Assembly (NCBI GenBank): GCA_964552565.1
Contig: CAZKGL010000001.1
Location: 754,406-818,405 of the forward strand
Direction: 5' to 3'
Source of the DNA: an uncultured Gammaproteobacteria bacterium
Lineage (GTDB): Bacteria; Patescibacteriota; Patescibacteriia; UBA9934
DNA length: 64,000 bases
The position numbers and the translations under genes were made by a program. Shown here one piece after another: positions 5,531-62,983 of this stretch; positions within the stretch are counted from its first letter, which is position 1, and the number at the start of each line of letters is the position of its first letter. The notes below the pieces were generated by a model. It made no database searches, had not been told where the DNA came from, and saw only the letters and a list, made by a program, of their open reading frames with translations.

Positions 5531-5557
5531 GTCCCTCGGCATCCGCCTCGGGATGGG
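5481..5557. repeat. R1 REP-like palindromic element, copy 1 (roughly 77 bp imperfect hairpin: ccatcccgacg..aggagggaccc..ctaggtccctcgg..cgcctcgggatgg).
   Basis: Near-identical copy at 23368..23447. Two nested inverted repeats. Both copies abut the 3' end of a + strand gene. Confidence 0.7.
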
Positions 5558-6735: not shown

Positions 6736-6795
6736 AACGGGGCTATCTTACTACATCCGAGCCCAAAAATAGGCGGTTTTCCACAGTACGGAGCG

Positions 6796-6882
6796 GCCGG
6801 GTGACGCCGAGCAGGTCCCCTGTTTGGGCGCGCAGACGCAAGTCGAGCACCCAACAGGGTGCGAAGGCGGCAGGACCCGGCC
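6796..6882. repeat. R2 palindromic element, copy 1 (roughly 87 bp: ggccgggtgacgccgagcaggtcccctgtttggg...cccaacagggtgcgaaggcggcaggacccggcc).
   Basis: Second copy at 62876..62970 with one indel block. The ends and internal segments are inverted repeats. Both copies are intergenic. Confidence 0.7.
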
Positions 6883-6944
6883 TATGCATAAGGTGCCGAT
6901 GGGTGTTCTAGGCCCCTCCTGGCGTCGGGGTGGTTGCAGGGCAG

Positions 6945-28897: not shown

Positions 28898-30817
28898 ATG
28901 GGTAACTTTAAACCCCGGTCGTTCCGCCCCGGTCGCGCTGAGCGCGACCCGAGTCGCGCATCACGCGACGGACAAGGCGGCGATCGCAACCAGGGCGGCC
29001 AGCCCGGCCAACAGCGCCAGGGCGGTCGTCCGTTCCGCCGCGACCGTCGTGGCGGCGGCCATCCGCCGGGCCCGCGCGGCATCGGCGAAGGCGCGCTCAA
29101 AGCGCACGAAGGCATGCTGAGCACCCGCACGTTTACCGGACCGACCGGCGACCGCGTGCGCGTCATCGTGCTCGGCGGCCTGGAAGAAGTCGGCCGCAAC
29201 TGCACGCTCATCGAATACAAGGATGACATCATCCTCGTTGACATGGGCCTCCAGTTCCCTGACGAAGACATGCCGGGCGTCGACTACATCATCCCGAACA
29301 TGTCCTACTTGAAGGGCAAGGAGAAGAACGTGCGCGGCGTCATCATTACGCACGGCCACTACGACCATATCGGCGCCATCCCGCACGTCATCCCGCACAT
29401 CGGGAACCCGGTCGTCTACGCGCTGCCGATCGCCGCGGGCATCATCAAGAAGCGCCAGACCGACTTCCCGACGAGCAAGGTCAACGTGAAGACGATCACC
29501 ATCGACACCGAGCTCCAGCTCGGCGCGTTCAAGGTGCACTTCTTCCATATCAACCACAACATCCCGGACTCCGCGGGTATCGTCATCGAGACCCCGGCCG
29601 GCACCATCTGCCACACCGGCGACTGGAAGTTCGACTACCATCCCGTCGGCGCCCCGCCGGCCGACTTCCATAAGATCGCGAAGGTCGGCATGGACGGCGT
29701 CACGCTCCTCATGGGCGACTCGACGAACGCGAGCCACGCCGGACACCAGACCTCCGAGGCGGTGATCGGCGAGGAGATCCGCACCATCCTCGAGAAGGCC
29801 AAGGGCCGCGTCATCGTCGGTACCTTCGCCTCGCTCCTCTCGCGCGTAAAGCAAATCATGGAAATCTCCGAGTCGCTCGGCCGCAAGGTCGCGCTCGAGG
29901 GCTACTCCATGAAGACGAACACGGAAATTGCGCGCGAGCTCGGGTTCATCAAGATCAACCCGAAGTCCATCATTCCGATTGAAAAAGTGAACGACTACCC
30001 GCCGGAAAAGATCACCATCATCTGCACCGGCGCCCAGGGCGAACAGCGCGCCGCGCTGTCGCGCATCGCGAACGACGAGCACCGCTTCGTCCGCATCGAA
30101 CGCGGCGACACCGTCATCTTCTCGAGCTCGGTCATCCCGGGCAACGAGGCCTCGGTGCAGCGCCTGAAGGACACCTTCTACCGCAAGCGCGCGAAGGTCA
30201 TCCACAAGGACATTATGGACGTCCACGCCGGCGGCCACGCGAAGAAAGAGGACATCAAGCTTATGCTGTCCCTCTTCAAGCCGAAGTACTACATGCCGAT
30301 CGAAGGCAACCACTTCCTCCTGCGTGAAAACGCCGAAGTGGCGTACAGCATGGGCTGGAGCGAGGAAAACGTCTTCGTCGCCGACAACGGGCAGATCATT
30401 GAGTTCTGGAAACAGGGCGCTGCATCGCACGGCGTCATGACGAAGGACAAGGTCCCTGCGGACTACGTCTTCGTCGACGGCCTCGGCGTCGGCGATATCT
30501 CCCAGGTTGTGCTCCGCGACCGCCAGGCGCTCGCCGAAGACGGCATGGTCGTCGTCATCGTCCAGGTCGAAAAGAAGACCGGGCAGATGTCGGCACCGCC
30601 GGACATCGTGAGCCGCGGGTTCATCCACATGAAGGAAAACCGCGACCTCATCGCCGAAGCGCGGACGCTCATCGAAAAGTCGCTGCGTGACTCGGACCCG
30701 AACTCGCCGGCCGACCCGGACGCCATCAAAGACGGCGTGCGTGAAGAACTCGGCAAGTTCATCTTCGAGAAAACCCAGCGCCGCCCGATGATCCTCCCGG
30801 TCCTCATCGAAGTGTAA
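28898..30817 (+). CDS. rnj: Ribonuclease J (metallo-beta-lactamase/beta-CASP), with an N-terminal Arg/Gly-rich extension.
   Basis: HGHYDHIGAIPHV, HTGDWKFD, beta-CASP and C-terminal domains. The N-terminal roughly 70 aa are RG/GG-rich. Confidence 0.9.
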   Translation: MGNFKPRSFRPGRAERDPSRASRDGQGGDRNQGGQPGQQRQGGRPFRRDRRGGGHPPGPRGIGEGALKAHEGMLSTRTFTGPTGDRVRVIVLGGLEEVGRNCTLIEYKDDIILVDMGLQFPDEDMPGVDYIIPNMSYLKGKEKNVRGVIITHGHYDHIGAIPHVIPHIGNPVVYALPIAAGIIKKRQTDFPTSKVNVKTITIDTELQLGAFKVHFFHINHNIPDSAGIVIETPAGTICHTGDWKFDYHPVGAPPADFHKIAKVGMDGVTLLMGDSTNASHAGHQTSEAVIGEEIRTILEKAKGRVIVGTFASLLSRVKQIMEISESLGRKVALEGYSMKTNTEIARELGFIKINPKSIIPIEKVNDYPPEKITIICTGAQGEQRAALSRIANDEHRFVRIERGDTVIFSSSVIPGNEASVQRLKDTFYRKRAKVIHKDIMDVHAGGHAKKEDIKLMLSLFKPKYYMPIEGNHFLLRENAEVAYSMGWSEENVFVADNGQIIEFWKQGAASHGVMTKDKVPADYVFVDGLGVGDISQVVLRDRQALAEDGMVVVIVQVEKKTGQMSAPPDIVSRGFIHMKENRDLIAEARTLIEKSLRDSDPNSPADPDAIKDGVREELGKFIFEKTQRRPMILPVLIEV

Positions 30818-30842: not shown

Positions 30843-31862
30843 TTGCTATACTGCCGACATCTGATACGCTACATGCCTATGCGCGCGCTTACCGGCATCC
30901 AACCCACGAACGTCATGCACATCGGCAACTTGTTCGGTGCGCTGAAGCCTGCGGTGGAGCTCCAAAAAGAGACCGACCTCGTCATGATGATCGTCGACCT
31001 GCACGCCATCACCGTCCCCCAGGACCCGAAGGCGCTCAACGACAACATCCTCTTCCTCACCGCGGCATACCTCGCCGCCGGTATCGACCCGAAGAAGACC
31101 CTCCTCTTCCAGCAGTCCGCCGTTCCGCAACACGCGGAGCTTGCGTGGATCCTCCAGACCATCTGCCGCATGGGCGAGGCGGAACGCATGACGCAGTACA
31201 AGGACAAGGCGCTCGGCAAAGGCGAGAAGGTCTCTGTTGGGCTCTTCACCTACCCCATCCTCATGGCCGCGGACATTCTCCTGTATGACACGGAGGTCGT
31301 TCCGGTCGGCGAGGACCAAAAGCAACACGTGGAGCTTGCGCGTGACTTGGCCGAACGCTTCAACCGCGACTTCGGCGAGACGTTTGTCGTCCCCCGGCCG
31401 CAAATCCGTGCCGCCGGCGCACGCATCAAATCGCTGCTTGAACCGGAAAAAAAGATGAGCAAGAGCGCCGCGAACGCAAAGAGCTACATCTCCCTCCTCG
31501 ACGATGCCGACGTCATCCGCAAAAAAATCATGAGCGCGGTGACGGACAGCGACCCGCATATCACGGTCGACGACGCCCGCCCGGGGCTCAAAAACCTCCT
31601 CACCATCTCCCACCTCGTCACCGGGGAGCCGATGGTCGACATCGCCGCCCGCTATGCCGACAAGGGGGCGAAATACCTCAAAGAAGACCTTGCGGAGGCC
31701 CTTGTCCTGTACCTGACCCCGCTCCAGGCCGAAATCCAGGGTTACCTGGCAAATCCCCTCGCCCTTATCGACATGTTGCGCGCCGGGGACGAGCGGGCGC
31801 GGAACATTGCCGAAACAAAGATGCGGCTTGTGAAACAGCGGATGGGAATGTTGCTAAAATAA
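30843..31862 (+). CDS. trpS: Tryptophanyl-tRNA synthetase.
   Basis: GIQPTNVMHIGNLFGAL (HIGH-like), KKMSKSAAN (KMSKS), and the GEDQKQHVELARDLA motif. Start possibly M at 30873. Confidence 0.9.
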   Translation: MLYCRHLIRYMPMRALTGIQPTNVMHIGNLFGALKPAVELQKETDLVMMIVDLHAITVPQDPKALNDNILFLTAAYLAAGIDPKKTLLFQQSAVPQHAELAWILQTICRMGEAERMTQYKDKALGKGEKVSVGLFTYPILMAADILLYDTEVVPVGEDQKQHVELARDLAERFNRDFGETFVVPRPQIRAAGARIKSLLEPEKKMSKSAANAKSYISLLDDADVIRKKIMSAVTDSDPHITVDDARPGLKNLLTISHLVTGEPMVDIAARYADKGAKYLKEDLAEALVLYLTPLQAEIQGYLANPLALIDMLRAGDERARNIAETKMRLVKQRMGMLLK

Positions 31863-31895
31863 GCGAAAAAATAGCAAAAATGGCTTGACAGAAGG

Positions 31896-31925
31896 GCCAT
31901 TTTTTGCTAGAGTAGAAGGCGTACA
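31896..31925 (+). promoter_or_regulatory. Strong sigma70-like promoter (TTGACA-N17-TAGAGT) at the left border of the accessory island, followed by a roughly 180-nt structured leader.
   Basis: ggcTTGACAgaagggccattttttgcTAGAGTag. The leader contains the ggccatgaaaag/cttttcatggcc 12-bp inverted repeat and a UUCG-capped hairpin. Confidence 0.45.
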
Positions 31926-32113
31926 CTGCTTCAAAACCAGAGGAGAGCGGGTGGGGTTACGAGACCCCCGCCTGTACGTAAAAGGCCATGAAAAGGCTTT
32001 TTGCAGAACCACCGTACCTTCGGGTATGGCGGCCTCCGCAGAAATACTTTTCATGGCCTTTTCTCTTCGGGGAGAAGCCGTGGTCCGTCCTCACCCCACA
32101 CGCAGAGGTTCCC

Positions 32114-32389
32114 ATGCGCACGCTGTTCTTCGTCCTCACCCACCCGAACGTCCTCGTCACCGAATTCAAGGTGATGTTCGACCGCACCGTGATCCTGAGC
32201 GCCCTCACCGGCGCCACGGCCACGAACGCCGCGGGTCTGGGGATGCTGCTCACCGGCGCCCCGGACCTCCCGATCTCGGCCTACTTCACGTCGGCTCCCC
32301 ACCTGATCTTCATCAGCCTCCTCGGCGCCGGCCTGGGCGCCTGGGCCCGGTGGGTCTGGCGAGGCGACTTCGACAAACCGCAGGGCTAG
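32114..32389 (+). CDS. Small integral membrane protein (91 aa).
   Basis: MRTLFFVLTHPNVLVTEFKVMFDRTVILSALTGATATNAAGLGMLLTGAPDLPISAYFTSAPHLIFISLLGAGLGAWARWVW... Real start inside the longer track ORF 31988..32389. Confidence 0.4.
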   Translation: MRTLFFVLTHPNVLVTEFKVMFDRTVILSALTGATATNAAGLGMLLTGAPDLPISAYFTSAPHLIFISLLGAGLGAWARWVWRGDFDKPQG

Positions 32390-32494
32390 CGCCGCTAGCC
32401 CGTCCGGTTCGCGAGGACCACACCACGCACGTCGTGGTCCTCGTCACCGGTCGATGCTGCAAGAGTCCACAACCACTCACCGGGGGTACGTACC

Positions 32495-32698
32495 ATGTCG
32501 ATTCAGAACCTCATCGCGCTTTTCATCTCCCTCATCATCACGCTCATCGGCTTCGCGTACACGAACGGCGCGGCCGAGGAGATCACGCTCTTCTACGCGT
32601 GGTTCGACGAGAACCACCTCACGTTCGTCCCGCTCGGCATCGGTTCCGCGTTCGGCATCGCCGTCCTCGGCGGCATCGGGCACATCACGACCGACTGA
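32495..32698 (+). CDS. Small integral membrane protein (67 aa).
   Basis: MSIQNLIALFISLIITLIGFAYTNGAAEEITLFYAWFDENHLTFVPLGIGSAFGIAVLGGIGHITTD; two hydrophobic helices. Confidence 0.4.
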   Translation: MSIQNLIALFISLIITLIGFAYTNGAAEEITLFYAWFDENHLTFVPLGIGSAFGIAVLGGIGHITTD

Positions 32699-32826
32699 GC
32701 ACGTGGGAGGATGGCACGCCATCCTCACCCACCGCATCGCGACGATTGATCTCCTCGATCGTCGCGAGCCGGAGGGCAAGCATCCCGCTTCCCCGAACTT
32801 CCGGGCAATCGCCCGAAGGAGACCCA

Positions 32827-33552
32827 ATGACCCTGTTCCTGCTCTTCGCCTGCCACGTCGACCGCACCACCGACCGCACCGCGGATGGCTACGGCTTCGA
32901 GGTGAGCGACCCGCGCACCGACTTCACCCCGCACGAACGGGAGGAGGACATCGGTGACACGGGCAACCCCACCCAGGACACCGACACGACGATCGAGACC
33001 GGCGACACCAGCGCGAGCACGAACTGCACGTTCGAGCTGGTCGCTTCGGGGAACGGGCGGATCGAGGTCAGCAACGAGCTGCAGTTCTCGCTCAGCTCGC
33101 TGTCCCCGTCCGGCTCCGGCGTCCCCAGCTACCAGGAGGTGTTCATCTTCAACATCGCCTCGCTCCACACGGAGTGCGGCGACGTGACGGCCGACACCGC
33201 GAGCCTCGAGATCTTCGCCAGCGACAACAACGGCGGCGAGACCCACTGGGCCGTCGGTGTCGAGGTCGCGATGGTCGACCTCACCGTCGACCCCACCGCG
33301 GCGATCATGACCGGCACCACGGACATGAACAGCACCGACAACATCTACGGTCCGCTCTCGGGCACCCTGACCGTCCCGGCCGGCGAGGCCCACACGTTCG
33401 CGGTCTACATGGACACGAACGGTGCCTCGGCGAGCCAGGACGACACGCTCAAGCTGAAGCTCCGCCGCTACATGCACATCGTGGACACGCCCGAGACCGC
33501 CGCCGCGGTCATGATGGATGAAGAGATCGAGGGCGGCACCCTCACCTTCTAG
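32827..33552 (+). CDS. Lipoprotein (lipobox LLFAC), paralog family member 1, acidic Thr/Asp-rich.
   Basis: MTLFLLFAC signal with Cys at +9. RBS aaggagacccaATG. Preceded by the conserved leader module (…gagccggagggcaagcatcccgcttcccc…). Only this C-terminal part of track ORF 31885..33552 is credible. Confidence 0.6.
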   Translation: MTLFLLFACHVDRTTDRTADGYGFEVSDPRTDFTPHEREEDIGDTGNPTQDTDTTIETGDTSASTNCTFELVASGNGRIEVSNELQFSLSSLSPSGSGVPSYQEVFIFNIASLHTECGDVTADTASLEIFASDNNGGETHWAVGVEVAMVDLTVDPTAAIMTGTTDMNSTDNIYGPLSGTLTVPAGEAHTFAVYMDTNGASASQDDTLKLKLRRYMHIVDTPETAAAVMMDEEIEGGTLTF

Positions 33553-33695
33553 CCCGGAGCTGCCGGCAACGGCAACTCCACCAGGGCTCGACCTGCGAGA
33601 ACGCTCGCAGGCCTCCGCATCGTCATCATCCGCCGATGGTGACGAGCCGGAGGGCAAGCATCCCGCTTCCCCAAGCCCTTTCACGGAGGACCGCC

Positions 33696-34205
33696 ATGAA
33701 GCGCGTCATCGAGATCCCCGCCGTCAAGATGCCATTCCTCAAGCTCACCTTCGACGACATCTGCGTTGAAGGAACGATCGACGGCTGGTACATCGACATC
33801 GGCGGCGACGCCGCGACGATGTTCGCCAGCTTCAAGCAATACCACGGGATCCGCATCGGCAACAAGCCGACCCCCGCGCTCGCGTCGATCCTCGAGGCCT
33901 TCCGCCTCGCCGGCCGTCCCGTGCTCAGCTACACCCTGTACACGAGCAGCCGGCCGGTGTGCGCGACGCACGCGATCCGCGACGGCTGCCTGTACAAGCC
34001 CACCGATGACTGGAGCGTGCCCGGCGGCGTGTTCGGCGAGATCTCCCCCGCCGATCCCATCGAGCAGATCGCGCCGATCGACCCCCGGTACCGCCAGGAG
34101 TACGACGATCGAGTCGCGCTCCGGGACGGCACGAATCCCGAACTCGCCGCAGAGATGGCGAAGTTCATGGCCTGGGCGAACAACGGCGCGGACGACCTCA
34201 CCTAG
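33696..34205 (+). CDS. Hypothetical cytoplasmic protein (170 aa) in a cassette-like position.
   Basis: MKRVIEIPAVKMPFLKLTFDDICVEGTIDGWYIDIGGD... RBS ggaggaccgccATG. Preceded by the same conserved leader module as the lipoprotein genes. Confidence 0.5.
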   Translation: MKRVIEIPAVKMPFLKLTFDDICVEGTIDGWYIDIGGDAATMFASFKQYHGIRIGNKPTPALASILEAFRLAGRPVLSYTLYTSSRPVCATHAIRDGCLYKPTDDWSVPGGVFGEISPADPIEQIAPIDPRYRQEYDDRVALRDGTNPELAAEMAKFMAWANNGADDLT

Positions 34206-34378
34206 CCCCGGAGCTGCCGGCAACGGCAACTCCACCAGGGCTCGACCTGCGAGATTCGCTCGCGGGCCCCGCAATCCGCATCATCCGAGACTAAGTCTAG
34301 ACTAAGTCTCGGTCCGATGGTGCCGAGTGCGGGGAACCAACCGGTTCGCACCATCCACTAAAGACCAGGAGGCCACCC

Positions 34379-34804
34379 ATGGCCTGGCAAAAGTTCAACC
34401 CCACGACTCCGCCCAAGGGCGTCATCGTGAAGGGCGACCCCGACGCGCCGCCCACACGGTGGTACAACCACCTGTGGCTCGTCCTGTTCGGATGGAAGAC
34501 CCAGGCGCTCTTCGTAGTCCACACGGACGACAAGCCCTTCCGGATCGGCTTCCGCAATCACAAGGGCGACCAGTACCTGAACAGCACGGTCTTCTCCGGC
34601 CGCCGCCTCCACGAGGTGACGTTCCTGCCGGACGGCACGCCCAAGTTCCACTGGCCCGCCTTCCGCGCGAAGATCGGCCACGAGGCCTGCACCTTCTTCG
34701 CCATCGGACTCGACGGCAAGGAGATCAAGATCGAGCACCTCCACTCCGGTGAGGGCGACTTCTACATCGAGATCTACGACCCCCACCAGTGCCCGCTCCT
34801 CTAG
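34379..34804 (+). CDS. Hypothetical protein (141 aa) in a cassette-like position.
   Basis: MAWQKFNPTTPPKGVIVKGDPDAPPTRWYNHLWLVLFGWK... RBS ccaggaggccacccATG. Conserved upstream module with a variable palindrome (gagactaagtctagactaagtctc). Confidence 0.5.
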   Translation: MAWQKFNPTTPPKGVIVKGDPDAPPTRWYNHLWLVLFGWKTQALFVVHTDDKPFRIGFRNHKGDQYLNSTVFSGRRLHEVTFLPDGTPKFHWPAFRAKIGHEACTFFAIGLDGKEIKIEHLHSGEGDFYIEIYDPHQCPLL

Positions 34805-34952
34805 AGCACAGGCAACGGCGAGCAGCGCATTCTTCGTCCGCGCTGCTCGACCCCCGCATCGTCACTATCTGATCTCCTCGGATAGCGACGAGCCGGGGGA
34901 AATGCCACAGTGGCAAAGTACCGACAACCACCTCCCAACCCCGGAGCTTCCG

Positions 34953-35681
34953 ATGACCCTGATCCTGCTCTTCGCCTGCAACACCCCCGCCCCCGAGAAG
35001 CCCGACGACACCGCCGGGCACAACCTCGAGGACAGCGGCGGCATCACGGACACCGGCACGATGACCACGGATGACACGGCTACCGACCCGTGCGCCTACA
35101 GCGTGACGGTCTGGGACATCGACCGCGAGGATGGCGAGCCGTACCCAGAGTCGGTGGAGGACGAGATGACGATGGAGAACGAGCTCATCGCGACGCGCGC
35201 CGAGTCCTCGCCCGAGGGCACGGTCGCGCCGAGCGAGGAGCTCACCATCGCGCACATCGCCTTCACGGCCCCGCACGCCGACTGCCCGAACGACGTCCTG
35301 GAGCACTTCCAGTTCCAAGTGTCGGGCATGGACTACCAGCACGTGCAGTGGGAGGAAGCCATCCGCGAGGACGGCGTCACCTTCCGCACCCTCGAGGACA
35401 ACGCCCTCATCGCCACGACCGCCGACGGCGTGTTCTACGGCGACGGGAGCGAGGACCCCGACTGGCACACCTGGTACTCGTCGCTGCCGCAGGACGTCGG
35501 CATCGATGCGGGCACGACGACGACCGTCGCCGTGTCGATCAATGCCTCGGGCGCCCAGCCCGGCGACACCGTCTACTTCCGGCTCTCGCCGGACAGCATG
35601 ATCTACTCGGTCGCGGGCAACGCCCAAGAGGCGGAGCTCCGGCACGAGGCGGTCGCCGGCAACACGCTCACGTTCGAGTAA
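34953..35681 (+). CDS. Lipoprotein (lipobox LLFAC), paralog family member 2.
   Basis: MTLILLFACNTPAPEKPDD...; same leader module with a 60-nt block shared with the next paralog (ggggaaatgccacagtggcaaagtaccgac...). Confidence 0.6.
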   Translation: MTLILLFACNTPAPEKPDDTAGHNLEDSGGITDTGTMTTDDTATDPCAYSVTVWDIDREDGEPYPESVEDEMTMENELIATRAESSPEGTVAPSEELTIAHIAFTAPHADCPNDVLEHFQFQVSGMDYQHVQWEEAIREDGVTFRTLEDNALIATTADGVFYGDGSEDPDWHTWYSSLPQDVGIDAGTTTTVAVSINASGAQPGDTVYFRLSPDSMIYSVAGNAQEAELRHEAVAGNTLTFE

Positions 35682-35863
35682 CGTCACTCCTTCTCGGCCG
35701 GCACCTCCCCTCGTGGAAAGGTGCCGGACCCCGCAATCTGCATCACTGTCGAGGCTTAGGCTCGAAGCTAAGCCTCGACAAGACCGTCCACAGTGGTGCC
35801 GAGTGCGGGGAAATGCCACAGTGGCAAAGTACCGACCATCACCTCCCAACCCCGGAGTTTCCG

Positions 35864-36580
35864 ATGACCCTGACCATGATCCTGTTCCTCGGCTGCCGAG
35901 TCCACTACTCCGTCGCGTACGACAAGAGCGACGGGGCGGACCTCGACAGCGGCAACGCGGACACCGACGCCGCCGACACCGGTACCGTGCAGGACACGGA
36001 CACCGGCTCGGTCGACACGGGCGTGACGGACACCGCCCCGCCCGAAGACACGGGCGGCACCGCGACAACGCCGACCGGCCCCACCGTCGCGTGGGTCGTC
36101 GACCACGAGTACGTCACGCTCGACCAGGTCATCCTGCCCGAGCTGTACGTCTCCGCGGACGACGGCAACGCGTACGCCATCACGCGGGTCGATGTCTTCG
36201 TCGGCGCGACCAACGACTCGTGGCCCACCACGGTCGAAGACACCCGCGTCGGCGTCGGGACGACCGACCAGCACGTCGGCGTCTTCACCGCCAACGACGA
36301 GTTCTGCGGTTCGCACGACGACGGGAACACGTACTGCTCGCTCGAGTGGGACATCGACCTCACGAACTTCGCGTTCGTGGTGGACGACACGTCCCTCCTC
36401 GACTTCGGCTTCACCATGGCCTTCTTCGCCTACACGGAGGAGCAGGTCAGCGAGGTCGAGTCGCTGCACGACGCCGAGGACGACCTCATGCGCGTGTACG
36501 CGACCGTGGCGTGGGAGGCGTCGGACGGCACGTCCGGCGAGACCAGCGCCGACGAGTTCTTCACGATCGAGGCCGAGTAG
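35864..36580 (+). CDS. Lipoprotein (lipobox LFLGC), paralog family member 3, Asp/Thr-rich.
   Basis: MTLTMILFLGCRVHYSVAYDKSDGADLDSGNADTD...; conserved leader with the variable palindrome tcgaggcttag-N8-ctaagcctcga. Confidence 0.6.
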   Translation: MTLTMILFLGCRVHYSVAYDKSDGADLDSGNADTDAADTGTVQDTDTGSVDTGVTDTAPPEDTGGTATTPTGPTVAWVVDHEYVTLDQVILPELYVSADDGNAYAITRVDVFVGATNDSWPTTVEDTRVGVGTTDQHVGVFTANDEFCGSHDDGNTYCSLEWDIDLTNFAFVVDDTSLLDFGFTMAFFAYTEEQVSEVESLHDAEDDLMRVYATVAWEASDGTSGETSADEFFTIEAE

Positions 36581-36715
36581 CACCTTCCCCGACAAGTCCT
36601 GCGAGATTCGCTCGCAGGCCCCCGCATCGTCATCATCCCGCCGGATGGTGACGAGCCGGGGGAACCTCTGGCGCACATCGCGTCGGAGCGTCCTCTGCCC
36701 TTTCCCGAGGCCAAC

Positions 36716-37195
36716 ATGCTGTTCCTGCTCATCGCCTGCGCCAACCGCGAGGCCGACATCGCCACGCCGTCGCCCGAGGCCGCCCAGCTCACCGCGCACT
36801 TCAGCCGCGGAGCGGCCTGCCGCGAGGACGGCGTCCTCGGCACCCTCACGTTCCACACGAACCGCGAGGTGTCGCTCCACTCCATCTCCCTCGACCCGCG
36901 CTTCGGCTGCGGCAAGGGGTGCGGCGGCGCGGTCCCGGTCGATATCGCGTTCGCGGGCGTCACGGTGGGCAGCGGCCGGCCCGTCGCCTGGGGGCAGCAC
37001 GGCTCGCGCCTCGTGCCTCGCAGCGATGTCCACGCCATCTGGATCCACCGCCCCGACTCCTTCGACGACACGCTCCTCACGGCGACGATCTCCGTCGATC
37101 CCGAGGACTGCGGCAAGATCCCGGACCGCGCGGTCATCCAGGTCGAGGCCTGGGACAACGTGGCCGGCCGGGACATCGTCGCGACGGTGCGGTAG
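36716..37195 (+). CDS. Lipoprotein (lipobox LLIAC), 159 aa.
   Basis: MLFLLIACANREADIATPSPEAAQL...; preceded by the conserved leader module (…ccgcatcgtcatcatcccgccggatggtgacgagccgggggaacc…). Confidence 0.55.
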   Translation: MLFLLIACANREADIATPSPEAAQLTAHFSRGAACREDGVLGTLTFHTNREVSLHSISLDPRFGCGKGCGGAVPVDIAFAGVTVGSGRPVAWGQHGSRLVPRSDVHAIWIHRPDSFDDTLLTATISVDPEDCGKIPDRAVIQVEAWDNVAGRDIVATVR

Positions 37196-37678
37196 CATCG
37201 GCCCTCCCGTGCGGCATGCCAGTACGCTGGTATGCCGCCGGCACCTCAGGTATCATGACTTCCCGGTCGTGGCCCCTGAGGTGCCCGACAACCCTTACCC
37301 ACCGGAGGAACACCACCGTGTCTGACAACCCGCGGCCGCCGCCGCGCGACGAGGACCCGATCCTCGAGATGATCCGCCACTTGGACCGGCACGAGCTCGG
37401 CGACGGCACGCAGCCGTTCCTGAGCCCGGCAGCCTTCGAAGAGTTCGCCCCGCGATCCGAGGAGGAGCCATGCCACCGGTAAGCGACCTCATCGTCGTCC
37501 TGAGCGTCCTCATGCTCACGGGCCTCATCGCCTGGATTGGCCCGCCACGGCGCTCGTGACTCCAGCCGGGAACGCCCGGCTGTCCTTCCCCCGCCATGCG
37601 CATTGCGCGTGGCGGGTGGATGCTTTTTATTGACAACCCAGCAGATTTCTGAGTATCCTGTGGCTGCCTGCGCCGCTT

Positions 37679-38122
37679 TTGGCCCAGGAGTTCCGTCCAC
37701 CACTCGCCCTCGAGGCTGTCACTCAGATGCACGCTGCCCCTTCGTCCCCCACCACCCCCCGCCGCATCGCCGGCATCTCCACCACCCCCGCCCAGGACGC
37801 GCTCCTCACGCGCATCACCGAGGCCTCGGAGCGCAACCCGCGCCTCGCCGGCTCGTTCGACCGCCTGTCGCGCTTCGCGAGCGGCACCGCCTGCCGCGAC
37901 CACGAGTGCTGCCGGCACTTCGCCGACCGCCTCATCGCGAAGATCGAGAACCAGCGCATGGTCGAGAAGGACGTGGGCACGGAGATCGCGACGCACGTCA
38001 GCCAGCGCCACCCGACGCGCGAGCCCTCGCGCCGCCGCATCGGCCCGGAGCTCGACGCCAAGAACGCGCTCGAGAGGGAGCGGCTCCGCAACGGGAACCG
38101 CGCGAAGCTGCAGCTCGCCTAA
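37679..38122 (+). CDS. Hypothetical protein (147 aa) with its own promoter (TTGACA-N18-TATCCT at roughly 37630) and terminator (roughly 38141-38190).
   Basis: ORF with a CRDHECCRHF Cys cluster. Flanked by the promoter-like hexamers and a ctgccccc/gggggcag + T-run hairpin. Confidence 0.45.
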   Translation: MAQEFRPPLALEAVTQMHAAPSSPTTPRRIAGISTTPAQDALLTRITEASERNPRLAGSFDRLSRFASGTACRDHECCRHFADRLIAKIENQRMVEKDVGTEIATHVSQRHPTREPSRRRIGPELDAKNALERERLRNGNRAKLQLA

Positions 38123-38235
38123 CCTCCCGCCGAGCGGGACTCGTCCGTACTGCCCCCGTCCCACCGGCCGGGGGCAGTCGACTTTTTCGGGAACGCCACT
38201 TCCGCTAGACAAAAACTTTAAAATCTGCTATATTT

Positions 38236-38655
38236 TTGACGCTCAGGGATGCCAGACGATCGCTGGGCCGCAAGGCCGAGAGGAAAGTCCGGACACCCGT
38301 GCGGCAGCAATGCCACACGACAAGAAGCGTCGCTAACGGCGACCAGGTATATTCAGACGATGAGGGATTGGCGAAAGTTATCCTTGACCGTCGGAACAAG
38401 CCTAGGGAAAGTACCACAGAGACAATACTAGTCCGCCCCTGGCGGATGAAACGTGAAAAGTACGATGAGGTCCGCAAGGGCTACATCGTTCGTCCCATGG
38501 CGACATGGAGACGTGGCAAACCCGCTTCGGTGCAAGAGCAAGTTTGGTCGCTCGCATGAGACGGTTGGCAACAACCGCCCTAGAGAGATGATCGTCACTC
38601 CTTCGGGAGGACAGAATCCGGCTTACCGGCTCCCCCTGGACACCATCACAAGGCC
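38236..38655 (+). ncRNA. rnpB: RNase P RNA (bacterial type A).
   Basis: P4 strands GAGGAAAGTCCGGAC ... ACAGAATCCGGCTTACCGGCTCC, and GGATGAAACGTGAAAAG (GGGTGAAA-like P10/11 region). Followed by the terminator hairpin gccgccc-gcaca-gggcggtttt. Confidence 0.8.
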
Positions 38656-42403: not shown

Positions 42404-43129
42404 GTGGATTACATCGAGTATGTACGGGGCGATGGCCCGATCGTTCTTACGGTGCCCCACGATGGCGGGCACACCGACGACTTCCTCCCGCGACGCCAGG
42501 TCGCGGGCTGGACACGGGACTGGCGGGACGAAGGGACGCTTGCAATCGGCTTCGTCGTCACGCATTTGCTGCACGCGTCTGGGCTCTCGCCCGCGGTCAT
42601 CACCCAGTGCCTCCATCGCCGGTTCCTCGACGTGAACCGTCCCGAAGGCCACGACCCCTACCAGGACGCCCGCCTCGCCAAGCACTACCGCATCTTCCAT
42701 GATGCGGTCGACGATGCGGTGCGAACGGCCTACCAGCGCCACGGCCGTGCCCTCCTCATCGACCTGCACGGCTTCGCGACGTCGCCCGGACCCGAGCGGT
42801 ATGACCTCGTGCTGGGGAGCGACAGCGGCGCAACCTGCCCGCTTGCGAGCGACCGCGTGCTCCAGGCGATGCTCGATGCCCGGGGATGGAACGTGGCGTT
42901 CTCGCCCGACCCCGCCCGCGGCGTCAGCGCCCGCTACCGTGGCGGATGGACGGTGCGGCGCACTGCCCGCGACTTCCGGCTTGAGCAGGTTGAGGCCTGC
43001 CAGATCGAGATCGCCCGGCACCTGCGAACCGGGGAGGACTTCCTCACGGCCGATGCCGAACGCCTCGTCGTCGACCTCGCCGACACCCTCATGGCACTCA
43101 TGCACCGCGCCCGCCGCGGCGTCGCCTGA
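42404..43129 (+). CDS. N-formylglutamate amidohydrolase-like (FGase family) zinc hydrolase.
   Basis: LTVPHDGGH and LIDLHGF motifs characteristic of the FGase/HutG-like family. Confidence 0.5.
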   Translation: MDYIEYVRGDGPIVLTVPHDGGHTDDFLPRRQVAGWTRDWRDEGTLAIGFVVTHLLHASGLSPAVITQCLHRRFLDVNRPEGHDPYQDARLAKHYRIFHDAVDDAVRTAYQRHGRALLIDLHGFATSPGPERYDLVLGSDSGATCPLASDRVLQAMLDARGWNVAFSPDPARGVSARYRGGWTVRRTARDFRLEQVEACQIEIARHLRTGEDFLTADAERLVVDLADTLMALMHRARRGVA

Positions 43130-43267
43130 CACGTTCCCGCCCGGAAGCCGCCGCTCGGCTTCCGGGCGGCACTCTTTTCCGGACAAAACTTTTTCGCTTC
43201 ACAACTTCACGATCGTGAACTTATGAAGCTGCGAGGTCCCTCCTCACGTCGGGATGATGAAAATTTT

Positions 43268-49458: not shown

Positions 49459-49545
49459 CTCGTTTGACCACGGTACTATTTGGCGATAAGCTGGGATTAA
49501 TCCCGATGGAGCTTTCCTACAAGGCTTATTCGAGGTGACGATAAA

Positions 49546-49587
49546 GACTCCCCTGATGCATCTGCATCGGCGGGAGTCTTTATTTTC
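49546..49587 (+). terminator. Rho-independent terminator after tdk (gactcccc...ggggagtc + tttattttc).
   Basis: 8-bp stem, 18-nt loop, T-rich tail. Confidence 0.6.
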
Positions 49588-49610
49588 ATCTATCCCCGGG
49601 GTCGGATCTG

Positions 49611-49688
49611 GGGCCTGTAGGAGTAATCGGTAACTCCATCGTGATTGTCACCTCGAGGTTGCGGGTTCGAATCCCGCCAGGTCCACCA
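49611..49688 (+). tRNA. tRNA-like sequence with well-formed acceptor, D and T arms but a non-pairing anticodon stem (possible pseudo-tRNA or non-decoding tRNA-like element).
   Basis: GGGCCTGTAGGAGTAATCGGTAACTCCATCGTGATTGTCACCTCGAGGTTGCGGGTTCGAATCCCGCCAGGTCCACCA. Acceptor 7 bp with one G·U, D stem GGAG/CTCC, T arm GCGGG-TTCGAAT-CCCGC, CCA present. The anticodon stem TCGTG/CCTCG pairs only 3 of 5, and the GTGATTGTCAC palindrome is internal. Confidence 0.4.
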
Positions 49689-49760
49689 TCGCTCCCCAGA
49701 TGGTTCCGTGACCCCAAAGACCACACAAACCCGCGCCCAGCGCGGGTTTGTGCTATGCGT

Positions 49761-58904: not shown

Positions 58905-59549
58905 ATGCTTATGGAAATCCTCCCCGCCGTACTTGCGCGCGACGCCACGGACTGCAAGGCACGGCTCCTCCATGACGGCCTGCGCCGCGTCGCGCCCATG
59001 TTCCATGTCGACGTCCTCGACGGGAGCATGTTTGACGCGACGTGTTTCGCCGACCCGACCGTCATCGGACAATGGGAGAACCTGCCGGACATCGAGGTGC
59101 ACTTCATGGTGCATAATCCTCTTCCGCACATCGTCGCTTGGCACGAACATGTCGCGACGACAAAACGCGTCCTCATCCATGCCGAGGTCGCCCGCCCGCT
59201 CGGCGCCATCATCGAGCGCGCGACGCAGCTCGGGCTCGAAACCGGCCTCGTCTTGAACCCGGAGACCAAGGTCGAGCGAATCGAGCACCACCTCCACGAC
59301 CTCGACGCGCTCCAACTCATGGGCATCCACCCCGGAGCCAGCGGCCGTCCGTTCCTTGGCGAACCGATCCTTGCAAAAATCCGCCGCGCGCGACAGCTCT
59401 ACCCCAACCTCGTCATCGCCGTCGATGGCGGTGTCGGCCCGTCCACTCTCGGCCCCCTTCGCGAGGCCGGGGCAACGCGGTGCGTCGCGAGCTCGGCGAT
59501 TTGGGCATCGGAAGACCCCGCGGAGGCCTACCGCAATTTGGTATACTAA
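58905..59549 (+). CDS. rpe: Ribulose-phosphate 3-epimerase.
   Basis: HVDVLDGSMF, MGIHPGASGRPF and AVDGGV motifs. A 14-bp inverted repeat (gcgtcgttgggcgg/ccgccaacgacgtc) lies in the rpiB-rpe spacer. Confidence 0.8.
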   Translation: MLMEILPAVLARDATDCKARLLHDGLRRVAPMFHVDVLDGSMFDATCFADPTVIGQWENLPDIEVHFMVHNPLPHIVAWHEHVATTKRVLIHAEVARPLGAIIERATQLGLETGLVLNPETKVERIEHHLHDLDALQLMGIHPGASGRPFLGEPILAKIRRARQLYPNLVIAVDGGVGPSTLGPLREAGATRCVASSAIWASEDPAEAYRNLVY

Positions 59550-59556
59550 GAGGGCT

Positions 59557-60363
59557 ATGTGGCGCTCCTGGTGTTTCCGCATGTTTTTCGCTGCGTTTGT
59601 CGCGTCGAGCGCGGGTGTTTTGGGTGGCGCCGGGTTTACGCCTGCCGTCACGACAGCGGCGGATCCGGGCGACCTCATCCGCGGCCAGAGCTACTCGTCC
59701 GTCTACTACCTCGGCGCCGACGGTCTTCGGTACGTCTTCCCCAACGAAAAGACCTTCTTCACCTGGTACGACGACTTCTCGGACGTCGTCTGGATCTCCG
59801 ACGAGGAGCTTGGCGCGATCCAGATCGGCGGCAACGTGACGTACAAGCCGGGCGTGAAGCTGGTCAAGATCAATACTGACCCAAAAACGTACGCGATTAC
59901 GGAAGGCGGGCTCCTGCACTGGGTCGAAACCGAGGAGCTTGCCGCGGCGCTGTACGGGGACGACTGGCCGTCGGACGTCGACGATATTCCGGACGCGTTC
60001 TTTACGAACTACCACATCGGTCCGTCCATCCGCTCGATTGGCGACTTCATCCCGGAAGAGGCGATTGCCGGCACGACGGACATCAACGACGACAAGGACC
60101 TCGTGTCACCCGCCGTCATCACGATCACCGGCCAGGGCTACTCCCCCATCGACGTGACCATCACCGTCGGACAGAGCGTCCGGTTCGTGAACGGCGACAC
60201 CGTGCAGCACACCGTGACCGCGGACGATCTCCTCTGGGGAAGCGGGACGCTTGCGCCCGGAGCCGAATTCGTACATACTTTTAGCTCAGAGGGTACGTTC
60301 CCTTTCTTTGACAGCTACAATTCGCGCCATACTGGCGCGGTGTACGTGACTGCAAACGACTGA
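59557..60363 (+). CDS. Secreted protein, paralog 1 of a three-gene tandem family. C-terminal cupredoxin-like beta-sandwich lacking Cu-ligand Cys.
   Basis: Signal peptide. Shared N-terminal domain (GDLIRGQSYSSVYYLGADGLRYVFPNEKTFFTWY...IQIGGNVTYKPG..KINTDPKTY). C-terminal VTITVGQSVRFVNGDTVQHTVTADD...GAVYV. Confidence 0.5.
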   Translation: MWRSWCFRMFFAAFVASSAGVLGGAGFTPAVTTAADPGDLIRGQSYSSVYYLGADGLRYVFPNEKTFFTWYDDFSDVVWISDEELGAIQIGGNVTYKPGVKLVKINTDPKTYAITEGGLLHWVETEELAAALYGDDWPSDVDDIPDAFFTNYHIGPSIRSIGDFIPEEAIAGTTDINDDKDLVSPAVITITGQGYSPIDVTITVGQSVRFVNGDTVQHTVTADDLLWGSGTLAPGAEFVHTFSSEGTFPFFDSYNSRHTGAVYVTAND

Positions 60364-60383
60364 AATAATCTTTTTCATTCATT

Positions 60384-61181
60384 ATGCACGCATCGCACCT
60401 CCGTTCGATCGCTATCGGCATGTTCGTCCTTGCCGCTATCGTCGGCCTGAGCGCGTTCGCCGCCATGTCCCAAAAGGCATCGGCCGCAACGAGCATCGAG
60501 GCCGGCGACCTTATCCGCGGCGAGACGTTCTCGGCCGTGTACTACATGGGCGCGGACGGTTTCCGTTATGTCTTCGTGAACGAAAAGACGTTCTTCACCT
60601 GGTACGACAACTTTGACGACGTCGTCTTCATCACCGACGAAGAGCTCGGCCAGATCCAGATCTGCGGGAACGTGACCTACAAGCCGGGTTCGAAGATGAT
60701 CAAGATCAACACCGACCCGAAGGTGTACTACGTCGACGAAGGCGGCAGCCTGTACTGGGTATCGTCGGAGAGCCTGGCGACCGAGATGTACGGCAGCAAC
60801 TGGAACCAACAGATCGACGACGTCCCGGATGGTTTCTTCTCGAACTACACCATCACGGGCGACGAAGCGGTTGCGAGCATGGCCGATGAGTCATTCACCG
60901 ACCACACCATCAACGAGGACAAGGGTCTCGTCGCACCGGAAGAAATCGTCATCGACGCCGACGGCTTCAGCCCGATCGACGTCACGGTCGATGCCGGAGC
61001 AACGGTCCGCTTCACCAACGAGGACAGCGAGCGCCACACGGCGACCGCGGACGACGGCAGCTGGGGTACCGGCACCATCCTCCCGGGCGGGACGTTCGTC
61101 GTCCGCTTCGAAGAGGCCGGCACCTACACCTTCTACGACGGCTACGACAACAGCAACACCGGCGCGGTCTACGTGGAGTAG
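60384..61181 (+). CDS. Secreted protein, paralog 2 of the tandem family.
   Basis: Same domain order as 59557..60363 (GDLIRGETFSAVYYMGADGFRYVFVNEKTFFTWY...; ...TVRFTNEDSERHTATADDGSWGTGT...GAVYVE). Confidence 0.5.
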   Translation: MHASHLRSIAIGMFVLAAIVGLSAFAAMSQKASAATSIEAGDLIRGETFSAVYYMGADGFRYVFVNEKTFFTWYDNFDDVVFITDEELGQIQICGNVTYKPGSKMIKINTDPKVYYVDEGGSLYWVSSESLATEMYGSNWNQQIDDVPDGFFSNYTITGDEAVASMADESFTDHTINEDKGLVAPEEIVIDADGFSPIDVTVDAGATVRFTNEDSERHTATADDGSWGTGTILPGGTFVVRFEEAGTYTFYDGYDNSNTGAVYVE

Positions 61182-61324
61182 ATTGGCGCGGATGTGAAAA
61201 GGCGGGGCTTCCATGCCCCGCCTTTTGCTTTGCTCAGCAGTATTTTCTTATTTTGTAAACTATAACTTGACACTATTTTCCTCGAACATTAGGGTTAGCG
61301 GGTTAGTCTTTACCCGTTCCCCGT

Positions 61325-62872: not shown

Positions 62873-62875
62873 GAC

Positions 62876-62970
62876 GGCCGGGTGACGCCGAGCAGGTCCC
62901 CTGCTTGGGCGCGCAGACGAGTCCGACGAGTCGAGCACCCAACAGGGTGCGAAGGCGGCAGGACCCGGCC
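62876..62970. repeat. R2 palindromic element, copy 2.
   Basis: ggccgggtgacgccgagcaggtcccctgcttggg...agcacccaacagggtgcgaaggcggcaggacccggcc; about 90% identical to the copy at 6796..6882. Confidence 0.7.
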
Positions 62971-62983
62971 TCATGAACACTCT

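Follow-up and report, generated by a model that had tools for sequence, protein, structure and literature searches.

In a genome of Candidatus Uhrbacteria (CPR), six adjacent orphan genes have one copy of a hairpin-rich spacer between each, and this module most likely acts as part of one long messenger RNA rather than serving mobile cassettes as a site of recombination. The copies occupy consecutive intergenic regions, I1 to I6, at 32.7-36.7 kb on the + strand of the 64-kb window (the whole stretch of DNA analyzed), and each consists of a short hairpin, H1, and, 0-2 nt downstream of it, a long hairpin in two parts, H2. We give about an even chance to the reading in which the H2 hairpins are intercistronic RNA processing or stability hairpins in a single operon whose surface genes evolve fast, with duplication and gene conversion having spread and homogenized the hairpins. 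The elements of the six spacers are as follows.

32707..32726, + strand: H1 hairpin of I1, GAGGATGG-CACG-CCATCCTC, without a U-tract
32729..32775, + strand: H2 of I1, medium class, loop TGATCTCCTCG, 55.2 bits with the covariance model
33553..33611, + strand: trailer block T and H1 of I2 (T hairpin 33556-33579, H1 33592-33611)
33612..33653, + strand: H2 of I2, short class, with 6 bp, a 2x2 loop, 11 bp and a tetraloop
34207..34266, + strand: trailer block T and H1 of I3 (H1 34246-34266)
34267..34334, + strand: H2 of I3, long class, with a CTAAG-containing apical extension
34820..34848, + strand: H1 of I4, GAGCAGCGC...GCGCTGCTC
34851..34899, + strand: H2 of I4, medium class, loop as in I1, compensatory stem changes
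35698..35727, + strand: H1 of I5, CCGGCACCT...AGGTGCCGG
35729..35810, + strand: H2 of I5, long class
36598..36618, + strand: H1 of I6, CCTGCGAG-ATTCG-CTCGCAGG
36619..36662, + strand: H2 of I6, short class

Recurrence of a module upstream of the genes at 32827, 33696, 34379, 34953, 35864 and 36716, claimed in an earlier note on this DNA, was borne out. With a covariance model, the six copies scored 50-62 bits, all of them co-oriented with the genes, and no further H2 copy was found in the 64-kb window, where the runner-up match reached 18.7 bits. A degenerate motif pattern, which catches 4 of the 6 copies with zero chance matches expected in the window, found no related copies in 185,579 species genomes, JGI metagenomes and IMG/VR; these collections returned only single, chance-like matches without the fold. 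No known RNA family matched the module. The region is indeed GC-richer than its flanks, as had been noted (GC of 0.65-0.70 versus 0.59-0.63; GC3 of 0.92-0.97 versus 0.73-0.88).

The covariation that the earlier note had proposed as a check on the leaders was found in H2: in an alignment with 16 pairs, 91.4% of the cells were paired and compensatory double changes occurred at 6 pairs, the observed score being reached by 0 of 500 shuffles, while slid controls collapsed. An independent RNAalifold run gave the same fold. In the four shorter copies (I1, I2, I4 and I6), a 2x2 internal loop separates a 6-bp lower stem from an 11- to 14-bp upper stem with a variable tip, and those of I3 and I5 take a longer, more interrupted form; overall, H2 spans approximately two turns. 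When 128 kb of strand was scanned strictly for perfect two-part hairpins having a 2x2 loop, 5 were obtained, 4 of them in the operon spacers on the + strand. The conserved gaGYcgggggaa, described earlier as a separate box, turned out to be the 3' strand of the 6- to 7-bp lower stem of H2, its partner being 5' CCCCCG, CCTCCG or CCCCGCA, with compensatory changes present. Nor is the enclosed palindrome completely different in each copy: the sequences form three related pairs, I2/I6 with a tetraloop alone at the tip, I1/I4 with a common loop and stems that differ by compensatory changes, and I3/I5 with related CTAAG-containing extensions; gatctcctcggatagcgac, taken for a palindrome, is a loop plus 3' arm. 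The hairpin cctgcgaga..cgctcgcagg, reported for every copy, is present in I2, I3 and I6, whereas I1, I4 and I5 carry hairpins of other sequence at that position.

The genes and transcription signals of the cluster are given below.

31885..31913, + strand: sole sigma-70-like promoter match upstream of the cluster (TTGACA-17-TAGAGT, TG present)
31914..32100, + strand: highly structured 5' leader or noncoding RNA (-97.1 kcal/mol, z = -6.6) at the putative transcript start
32114..32389, + strand: ORF for a 91-aa membrane protein, opening the putative operon, a gene call in the MAG copy
32495..32698, + strand: g0, 67-aa membrane protein, GC3 of 0.94
32827..33552, + strand: g1, paralogous to g4, putative lipoprotein of 241 aa (MTLFLLFAC...)
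33696..34205, + strand: g2, 169-aa cytoplasmic ORFan
34379..34804, + strand: g3, 141-aa protein, one homolog only, at 39% identity
34953..35681, + strand: g4, putative lipoprotein of 242 aa, its C-terminal domain beta-rich in a low-confidence model
35864..36580, + strand: g5, 238-aa putative lipoprotein
36716..37195, + strand: g6, 159-aa protein, lipobox-like start MLFLLIAC

The description of four paralogous lipoproteins holds for g1 and g4 (BLASTP E 6e-9); the others show no significant similarity, and g5 and g6 have little in common past a short lipobox signal. The homolog of g3, in another organism, sits behind its own canonical promoter without an H2. An RNase J gene lies directly upstream of the cluster, within the window.

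From consensus promoter and terminator scans alone we infer co-transcription of these genes; RNA-level function and the identity of the nuclease we likewise infer. No promoter-like site was found within the leaders by the consensus scan, CPR promoters being poorly known, and the next such site on the + strand lies at 37630-37659. No U-tract terminator was scored among the leader hairpins by the terminator scan, and classic hairpin-plus-U terminators are present in other intergenic regions of the window. The segment at 31914..32100 had no Rfam match at E<=5. The six leaders would be spacers of one polycistronic transcript, apparently starting at 31885-31913 and spanning genes that are lineage-specific and rich in GC3 and that encode putative lipoproteins, cytoplasmic ORFans and small membrane proteins. 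In the mRNA sense, each spacer would fold into H1 and an abutting H2.

A G·U position readable only on the + strand had been claimed for the stem. A U.G pair does occupy the same stem position in four copies, but the bias toward one strand is weak: in 5 of the 6 copies the + strand fold is stabler, by 1.1-2.8 kcal/mol, and in I4 the - strand is favored by 1.3 kcal/mol, an A.C mismatch becoming G.U on the - strand. Common ancestry of the four U.G copies makes this preference partly non-independent, so that a DNA-level hairpin is possible too.

The same architecture, H1 plus a two-part hairpin, recurs with unrelated sequence in the flanking spacers I0 and I7.

32404..32450, + strand: two-part hairpin of I0, unrelated in sequence to H2, with 5 bp below an internal loop and an upper stem above it; a GCTAGC-GCC-GCTAGC hairpin comes before it
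37211..37285, + strand: I7, an H1-like hairpin of unrelated sequence (37211-37238) and a two-part hairpin (37240-37285) of 11 bp, a 2x2 loop and 8 bp, in which three pairs are G.U and form on the + strand only

The resemblance of I0 and I7 to the module is no more than suggestive, as the genome has many GC-rich hairpins of comparable energy (182 clusters at dG <= -26 kcal/mol). The one foreign homolog of g4 (68% amino acid identity), on Logan contig L002, is flanked by a spacer of this architecture as well, again of unrelated sequence: a 9-bp H1, a gap of 0 nt, then 8 bp, a 2x2 loop and 10 bp, the hairpin being reconstructed by joining the ends of the 954-bp contig through an overlap of only 16 nt. 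Its upper stem has a U.G at the 7th pair, as in I2, I6, I3 and I5. Shape kept without sequence in I0, I7 and L002 fits a reader of structure better than a sequence-specific recombinase. The fallback suggestion of the earlier note, a structured leader RNA family, fits much better than cassettes because of the covariation, the weak + strand wobble bias, the lack of internal promoters and U-tract terminators, and the architecture recurring with unrelated sequence in another organism.

Among known systems, early mRNA of phage T7 carries intercistronic RNase III processing hairpins, R0.3-R1.3, and similar stabilizer stem-loops occur within operons. Like H2, the T7 hairpins are repeated hairpins of approximately two turns with a small internal loop between consecutive cistrons, lack a U-tract, and keep shape more than sequence. 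Unlike them, H2 lies at a chromosomal locus of a CPR host in a window with no visible RNase III gene, has a second hairpin abutting each copy on the 5' side, and is held near-identical among copies by recombination. By analogy with RNase III sites and stabilizer hairpins, such elements would allow the cistrons to be separated by cleavage or to decay, and to differ in rate of expression; H1 would cap the upstream segment at its 3' end, and H2 the downstream segment at its 5' end.

In a second reading, which we consider unlikely, the spacers would be mainly DNA-level homology tracts that promote homologous recombination or gene conversion of surface-protein genes, with the hairpins incidental or secondary, at a variable surface-antigen locus where genes are shuffled, duplicated or replaced. 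Intergenic blocks are 94-100% identical across 15-67 nt, in a mosaic between different spacer pairs, and no meaningful nucleotide similarity was found among the CDS interiors of the cluster genes. The 5' untranslated region and first codons of g4 and g5, which encode the signal peptide, are 95.5% identical over 67 nt and their mature parts unrelated; the genes are ORFans or encode fast-evolving putative surface proteins; and the Logan contigs end within the repeats. This recalls the vlp, vsp and vsa variable lipoprotein multigene families of Mycoplasma, which have a conserved 5' untranslated region and signal peptide; there too, lipoprotein genes stand in tandem with 5' noncoding sequence and signal-peptide codons far more conserved than the mature proteins. 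Unlike those families, the cluster has no invertase, inversion sites or homopolymer or tandem-repeat switch, and its spacers are also common to non-lipoprotein ORFs. Homology tracts need no pairing, yet H2 has its compensated pairs and I0, I7 and L002 keep the architecture with unrelated sequence; moreover, the identical stretches are short, and three assemblies, probably from related samples, show no strain variation.

Alternatively, the leaders could be RNA or DNA binding sites of a dedicated regulator, for instance the small basic protein encoded at 37727-38122 or another protein that binds RNA, with gene-specific control through the three H2 classes. The classes are discrete and each occurs in a pair, an unpaired CA/GC is conserved in the internal loop of I1, I2, I4 and I6, H3 hairpins lie near or overlap ribosome-binding sites, and an ORF of unknown function next to the cluster comes with a promoter-like site of its own. 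We nevertheless find this reading doubtful, as no regulator domain is recognizable (the 131-aa ORF has only weak, sub-threshold TetR-like matches), I7 and L002 lack the conserved loop nucleotides, and there was no match to an Rfam cis-regulatory family.

The mobile cassettes favored by the earlier note failed each test that could be run. In an integron-like version, which we judge very unlikely, H2 would be an attC-like folded site at which a site-specific recombinase inserts and excises promoterless ORFs. The cluster does resemble attC arrays in its co-oriented, promoterless, unrelated small ORFs behind one promoter-like site and its skewed composition, and H2 in its layout, where an unpaired internal loop lies between a conserved base or lower stem and an upper stem that ends in a variable structure; in addition, the unrelated g1 and g2 have near-identical left and right boundaries. 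However, the window holds no tyrosine recombinase or other integrase, precomputed Pfam matches included, and no IntI; RYYYAAC/GTTRRRY core pairs (R''/R' sites) number zero in 32300-37400; and the degenerate pattern found no relative in any collection scanned. An H2 precedes the first array gene and none follows the last, and H2 class goes with the downstream paralog (g1 and g4 both have the medium class), where attC would go with the upstream ORF. The rAID-1 elements of Bacteroidales are defined by a conserved XerD-family recombinase and immunity-gene homologs, and share with the cluster small unrelated gene arrays, skewed GC and repetitive intergenic sequences (bioRxiv 10.1101/471110); in contrast, neither the recombinase nor the immunity-gene homologs were found at this locus.

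Equally improbable is colonization of the intergenic regions by a small, selfish repeat of palindromic type, similar to REP/BIME or MITE elements and without host function. The module is a BIME-like mosaic of imperfect palindromes and other short motifs between operon genes, and two other small dispersed repeat pairs occur in the window. REP elements are found genome-wide in both orientations, whereas H2 has six copies in consecutive spacers of one cluster in one orientation, with none in some 45 other intergenic regions of the window; target-site duplications and, within the window, a RAYT or IS200-type gene are absent, and H2 class co-segregates with paralogous downstream genes. Some REP/BIME elements stabilize upstream mRNA.

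The array at 18.5-20.9 kb, to whose presumed recombinase system the variable palindromes had been tentatively tied, is probably a TIGR-Tas stem array (PMC12045711) and not a recombinase system: its protein matched a TIGR-Tas endonuclease model better than an IS110 model, indicating an RNA-guided locus, and the cluster shows no excess complementarity to it over control segments. That H2 tips are natural targets of this neighboring array (16.8-20.9 kb), whose RNA-guided DNA binder would control or rearrange the surface-gene operon, is barely credible: what TIGR systems target in nature is unknown (PMC12045711), GC3 is unusually high in both the Tas-like gene (0.96) and the island (0.92-0.97), a CCTCCG/CGGAGG base is common to the array S2 hairpins and H2 of I1 and I2, and the I3 tip holds one 8+8 tandem match, but that match is within chance, exact matches of at least 10 nt number 36 versus 18-51 in control segments, tandem-spacer-style matches number 117 versus 104 expected at k=7 with none at k=9, and the array hairpins score only 10-13 bits (E > 1) with the covariance model.

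What survives of the cassette idea points to a locus that evolves by recombination between spacers. The 3' gene ends, said to be conserved throughout, are so for g1 and g2 (48/48 nt plus CTCACC..TAG) and not for the remaining genes; trailer block T of I2 is identical to 34207-34254 at 48 of 48 positions, and since RNA structure is insufficient to account for such identity in an unstructured linker, recent recombination is required. The near-identical boundaries of the unrelated g1 and g2 likewise suggest recombination between spacers as the mode of evolution. For the operon of processing or stability hairpins, an ancient duplication of a unit of H2 plus lipoprotein gene would have left g1 and g4 with the medium H2 class and compensatory stem changes; later exchange of spacer blocks, by gene conversion or unequal recombination, would have produced the mosaic and set the unrelated g2 and g3 between identical boundaries. 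Altogether, the spacer module is real, yet a local curiosity.

The window is 99.98% identical to JACOUU010000002.1, a contig of the Candidatus Uhrbacteria (CPR/Patescibacteria) MAG GCA_016177675.1. Structurally, the two differ only at 30270-30313 and 42512-42564, where indel-like gaps (about 43 nt and 52 nt, respectively) interrupt sequence that is otherwise 99.7-99.98% identical. Three assemblies of the locus, probably from related samples, are identical. The cluster under study has the following features and neighbors.

Features of the gene cluster and its surroundings
28898-30817, RNase J gene (precomputed annotation of the MAG copy)
30843-31862, trpS (PF00579), left neighbor of the cluster
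32114-32389, +, ORF for a 91-aa membrane protein
32495-32698, +, g0
32827-33552, +, g1, putative lipoprotein gene
33696-34205, +, g2
34379-34804, +, g3
34953-35681, +, g4, putative lipoprotein gene
35864-36580, +, g5, putative lipoprotein gene
36716-37195, +, g6
downstream of g6, +, two small ORFs
37727-38122, +, 131-aa ORF
38244-38642, RNase P RNA gene (rnpB), right limit of the region

None of the cluster genes, that is, g0-g6 and the neighboring + strand ORFs, reached a Pfam family cut-off, and searches against PHROG and NCBIfam gave no matches; the 131-aa ORF has a sub-threshold TetR-like match. Homologs, all on contigs of 1-2 kb, amounted to one foreign homolog for g4, one for g3, and merely a marginal one for g2. 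Structures were predicted with low confidence (pLDDT 55 for g4 and 38 for g3), and Foldseek matched the g4 model to generic beta-sandwich folds (TM ≤0.46), which is compatible with a surface protein, no more. GC3 is 0.92-0.98 in g0-g6 and the 131-aa ORF versus 0.73-0.88 in most other genes of the window, making the island compositionally distinct; together with the GC comparison, this bears out the skewed, GC-rich composition noted earlier. When the island was compared by blastn with phage and plasmid collections as a possible origin, no match was found.

The six consecutive spacers I1-I6, upstream of the genes at 32827, 33696, 34379, 34953, 35864, and 36716, all fold alike, confirming the repeated module that an earlier note had described there. 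Each carries a perfect 8- to 9-bp hairpin without a U-tract (H1), followed after 0-2 nt by a long two-part hairpin (H2), a small hairpin, and a GGAG-type ribosome-binding site. H2 consists of a 6- to 7-bp lower stem (CCCCCG/CGGGGG, CCTCCG/CGGAGG, or CCCCGCA/TGCGGGG), a small internal loop (2x2 in I1, I2, I4, and I6), an upper stem of 9-14 bp, and a variable tip. Covariation among the six aligned copies extends over 16 pairs, with 91.4% of positions paired and 6 pairs showing compensatory double changes; the observed score was reached in 0 of 500 shuffled controls, and the signal collapsed when pairing partners were slid by 1-3 columns. Unguided RNAalifold returned the same H2 fold. On the 64 kb, a covariance model retrieved the six + strand copies at 50-62 bits, with the next match at 18.7 bits. 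The module had no Rfam match at the gathering threshold, and at E ≤5 the region 31800-38300 yielded only RNase P and one chance-level sRNA match. Altogether, the repeated structured element is genuine and statistically solid.

Several details of the initial description change with this alignment. The gaGYcgggggaa sequence, listed as a conserved box of its own, is the 3' strand of the H2 lower stem, and the tips, described as a different palindrome in every copy, form three pairs: I2 and I6 have a tetraloop, I1 and I4 share one loop on compensated stems, and I3 and I5 carry related extensions. The cctgcgag hairpin is present in three spacers but not in the other three, and conservation of the 3' ends of the preceding genes applies to g1 and g2 but not to the remaining genes. 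Of the proposed family of four paralogous lipoproteins, g1 and g4 are indeed related (E 6e-9), but no other pair is significantly similar; what g5 and g6 have in common is mainly an unusually short lipobox signal. The case for a strand preference is weaker than first described: the G·U position readable only on the + strand recurs as U.G in four copies, although these are of common descent, and the + strand is favored by 1-3 kcal/mol in five copies but disfavored in I4. I6 alone contains a second perfect two-part hairpin (36657-36697; 7 bp, 2x2 loop, 9 bp). Because it reuses CGGGGG, the 3' strand of the H2 lower stem, it is mutually exclusive with H2, and the two alternative structures could act as a switch.

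The layout of the module extends beyond its sequence. The flanking spacers I0 and I7, unrelated in sequence to I1-I6, likewise present a short hairpin and then a two-part hairpin of 18-19 pairs, that of I7 with three G.U pairs on the + strand only. The only foreign homolog of g4 (68% amino acid identity) is encoded on a 954-bp Logan contig from SRR23882323 that starts and ends inside one hairpin, its ends overlapping by 16 nt; hence, in the foreign organism as well, hairpin spacers are repeated on both sides of the gene. The spacer reconstructed by joining the contig ends has a 9-bp hairpin directly followed by one of 8 bp, a 2x2 loop, and 10 bp, with U.G at pair seven of the upper stem, a feature shared with four H2 copies of the window. 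The encoded homolog has a lipoprotein signal of normal length (MRTDMLLASLLFLPGC) versus 8-10 residues in the window. A loose scan for strong hairpins, uninformative in such GC-rich DNA (872 matches, then 182 clusters), was replaced by a strict scan of both strands for perfect two-part hairpins with a 2x2 loop, which found five, four of them in the operon spacers on the + strand. That the shape persists without the sequence, across spacers and organisms, speaks for recognition of the RNA structure rather than for a DNA enzyme that reads a sequence.

A consensus scan placed a strong sigma-70-like promoter match (TTGACA-17-TAGAGT, extended -10) at 31885-31913, the following promoter-like sites on the + strand being at 37630 and, before rnpB, at 38206; none was detected inside the six leaders. 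Intrinsic terminators combine a hairpin with a U-tract, and no leader hairpin, all lacking the U-tract, scored as one, while textbook examples are present in other intergenic regions of the window. A single upstream promoter-like site, with no promoter or terminator scored in the leaders, suggests a putative common transcript of some 5.7 kb. Past this site, a stretch of roughly 190 nt (31914-32100), whose GC content is below that of the following genes, is predicted to fold very stably (-97 kcal/mol, z = -6.6), and no Rfam family matched it at E ≤5; it could be an unrecognized riboswitch or leader of the operon, or a separate small RNA.

RNase III processing sites, as in T7 early mRNA, are helices that span some two turns, contain a small internal loop, and lie between cistrons. 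H2 and its counterparts of unrelated sequence show the corresponding double-stranded RNA of about 20 bp with such a loop: 17-19 pairs plus the 2x2 loop in I1, I2, I4, I6, I7, and the reconstructed foreign spacer, and more in I3 and I5. By this likeness, H2 may be an RNase III-type processing site between cistrons, and the abutting hairpins would then each cap one fragment, the upstream fragment at its 3' end and the downstream fragment at its 5' end, an arrangement that would benefit a bacterium possessing RNase J. The module is best read as an intercistronic RNA element in a fast-evolving surface-gene operon, with cleavage as its putative mechanism, and the DNA-level alternatives to this reading are less likely but keep some weight.

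Blocks of 15-67 nt in the spacers are 94-100% identical, and the coding interiors are essentially without nucleotide similarity. The I1/I4 pair, with three compensated stem positions and adjoining paralogs of 24-30% identity, shows an old divergence. Near-identical blocks nevertheless occur in differing spacer pairings, namely, the trailer block in I2 and I3 (48/48 nt), the block after H2 in I1 and I2 (30/30 nt), and the 5' untranslated region with signal codons in I4 and I5 (64/67 nt), a mosaic that cannot be explained without gene conversion or unequal recombination among the spacers. Furthermore, g2, an ORFan unrelated to g1, has the boundaries of g1 (on the left after ...CGCTTCCCC, on the right CTCACC..TAG and the trailer block), and the sole homolog of g3 stands behind its own canonical promoter without H2; unrelated genes have thus been placed between shared spacers. 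To this extent the impression of gene cassettes was correct, but the evidence indicates placement by homologous or illegitimate rather than site-specific recombination.

In a far-reaching alternative, surface-protein genes would be exchanged as cassettes by a CPR system not described before, with the spacers as its sites of recombination or targeting, in one version addressed by the array of structured repeats at 18.5-20.9 kb. The promoterless ORF array would then be a programmable surface-antigen repertoire; we regard this reading as very improbable. The recombinase-cassette reading failed at the enzyme, as no tyrosine recombinase was found in the 64 kb (Pfam on scanned ORFs and precomputed MAG hits). 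The repetitive intergenic sequence and skewed GC that serve as criteria for rAID-1 are both present in the cluster, but rAID-1 is headed by a XerD-family recombinase, whereas the upstream neighbor here is trpS and the window contains no recombinase, and its immunity-protein homologs have no counterpart among g0-g6 (Pfam cut-offs, PHROG, NCBIfam). H2 resembles an integron attC in shape only (imperfect hairpin, unpaired spacer, variable tip): core pairs (R'' RYYYAAC and R' GTTRRRY, 40-160 nt apart, either strand) numbered zero in 32300-37400. Moreover, attC forms the 3' end of a cassette, whereas g1 and g4, the one clear pair of paralogs, are each preceded by an H2 of the medium class, so that H2 seems to travel with the downstream gene. 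REP/BIME and MITE elements are dispersed in both orientations, in contrast to the six clustered + strand copies within 64 kb, and no RAYT gene was found among the window ORFs. An invertible promoter, as in the mpl genes of Mycoplasma penetrans, was rejected, since the inverted repeat encloses 4-40 nt with no promoter match. Judged on the 64 kb, the module belongs to none of the integron, rAID, and REP types and to no Rfam family, and the locus provides no evidence for a new class of mobile element.

The array itself has a different character. Directly upstream of it, a 563-aa ORF (16804-18495; GC3 0.96) matched NCBIfam TIGR_Tas_endo (E 1.8e-19, 70.6 bits, curated cut-off 100), and more weakly IS110 (E 5.8e-10), as well as Pfam Transposase_20. 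About 11 structured units of roughly 155-210 nt follow up to 20900, where a terminator lies beside tRNA-Val; their parts are GCGCGCGACT...GTCGCGCGC, CCCTCC...GGAGGG hairpins, and GGCGGTGACT...ACCGCC stems around variable loops. TRF and Rfam did not detect the array. A 'stem array' clade of CPR TasR is mentioned in PMC12045711, and the locus at 16804-20900 fits it; given this fit to the description of Faure et al., the array is probably RNA-guided and not a recombinase system.

The suggested complementarity between the spacers and the array loops did not emerge. Exact k-mers of at least 10 nt shared by 18496-20900 and 32000-38200 in either orientation numbered 36, against 18-51 in controls, and none fell in any H2 tip. 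In a coarse test for tandem-spacer matches, defined as a reverse-complement k-mer with an adjacent direct k-mer from one array unit, the island gave 117 at k=7, where 104 were expected, and at k=9 it gave none. Array hairpins reached just 10-13 bits in the H2 covariance model, and the 'same design principle' seen in array hairpin S2, a conserved base with a variable tip, is common to hairpins in general. A link between the spacer module and the TIGR-Tas array is not demonstrable.

Outside the cluster, the covariance model found no further leader-like sequence in the 64 kb covered, out of a genome of approximately 839 kb. GTDB species genomes (the source genome being absent from this set), JGI metagenomes, and IMG/VR were scanned with a degenerate pattern that catches 4 of the 6 copies and would miss diverged relatives. 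The matches, on 13 genome, 19 metagenome, and 0 viral contigs, were all isolated; as none resembles the window and all score ≤24 bits in the covariance model, they are chance hits, and within the reach of this pattern H2 is not a widespread recombination site.

Other parts of the window contain repeats and structures of their own. An 81-nt intergenic repeat containing TTTTTCTAGGTCCCTCGGCATYCGCCTCGGGATGGG occurs at 5480-5557 and 23366-23446 (85% identity); both copies follow a gene end and fold into hairpins, and a partial third may lie near 43240. A 97-nt repeat (91% identity) is found at 62875-62971 and 6794-6883, one copy overlapping the start of a transketolase-like gene and the other lying between bactofilin and ArgRS genes. 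A second locally duplicated gene family, at 59356-62308, comprises three tandem paralogs with 67-79% nucleotide identity, two with cupredoxin-like C-terminal domains. A highly stable structure (49480-49690; z about -4) is situated directly upstream of a tRNA-like gene and overlaps it (4-nt anticodon tgtc by ARAGORN; Rfam tRNA at just 42.5 bits); the gene may represent an atypical tRNA, a tRNA with an intron, or an element resembling tRNA. The anticodon of tRNA-Ile at 21736-21810 is TAT, uncommon in bacteria.

The analysis distinguishes the locus from the probable TIGR-Tas stem array, which lies 12 kb upstream and is the more interesting of the two, and the repeats account for assembly breaks at this locus. 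The practical value of the finding is limited; it includes a covariance model applicable to the complete genome and its relatives. The module is a clear small example of compensatory hairpin maintenance alongside concerted spacer evolution. To our knowledge, post-transcriptional control in CPR episymbionts is almost unstudied, and if the reading as an RNA element is true, the module would be an uncatalogued structured RNA through which such an episymbiont organizes the expression of a surface-protein operon specific to its lineage.
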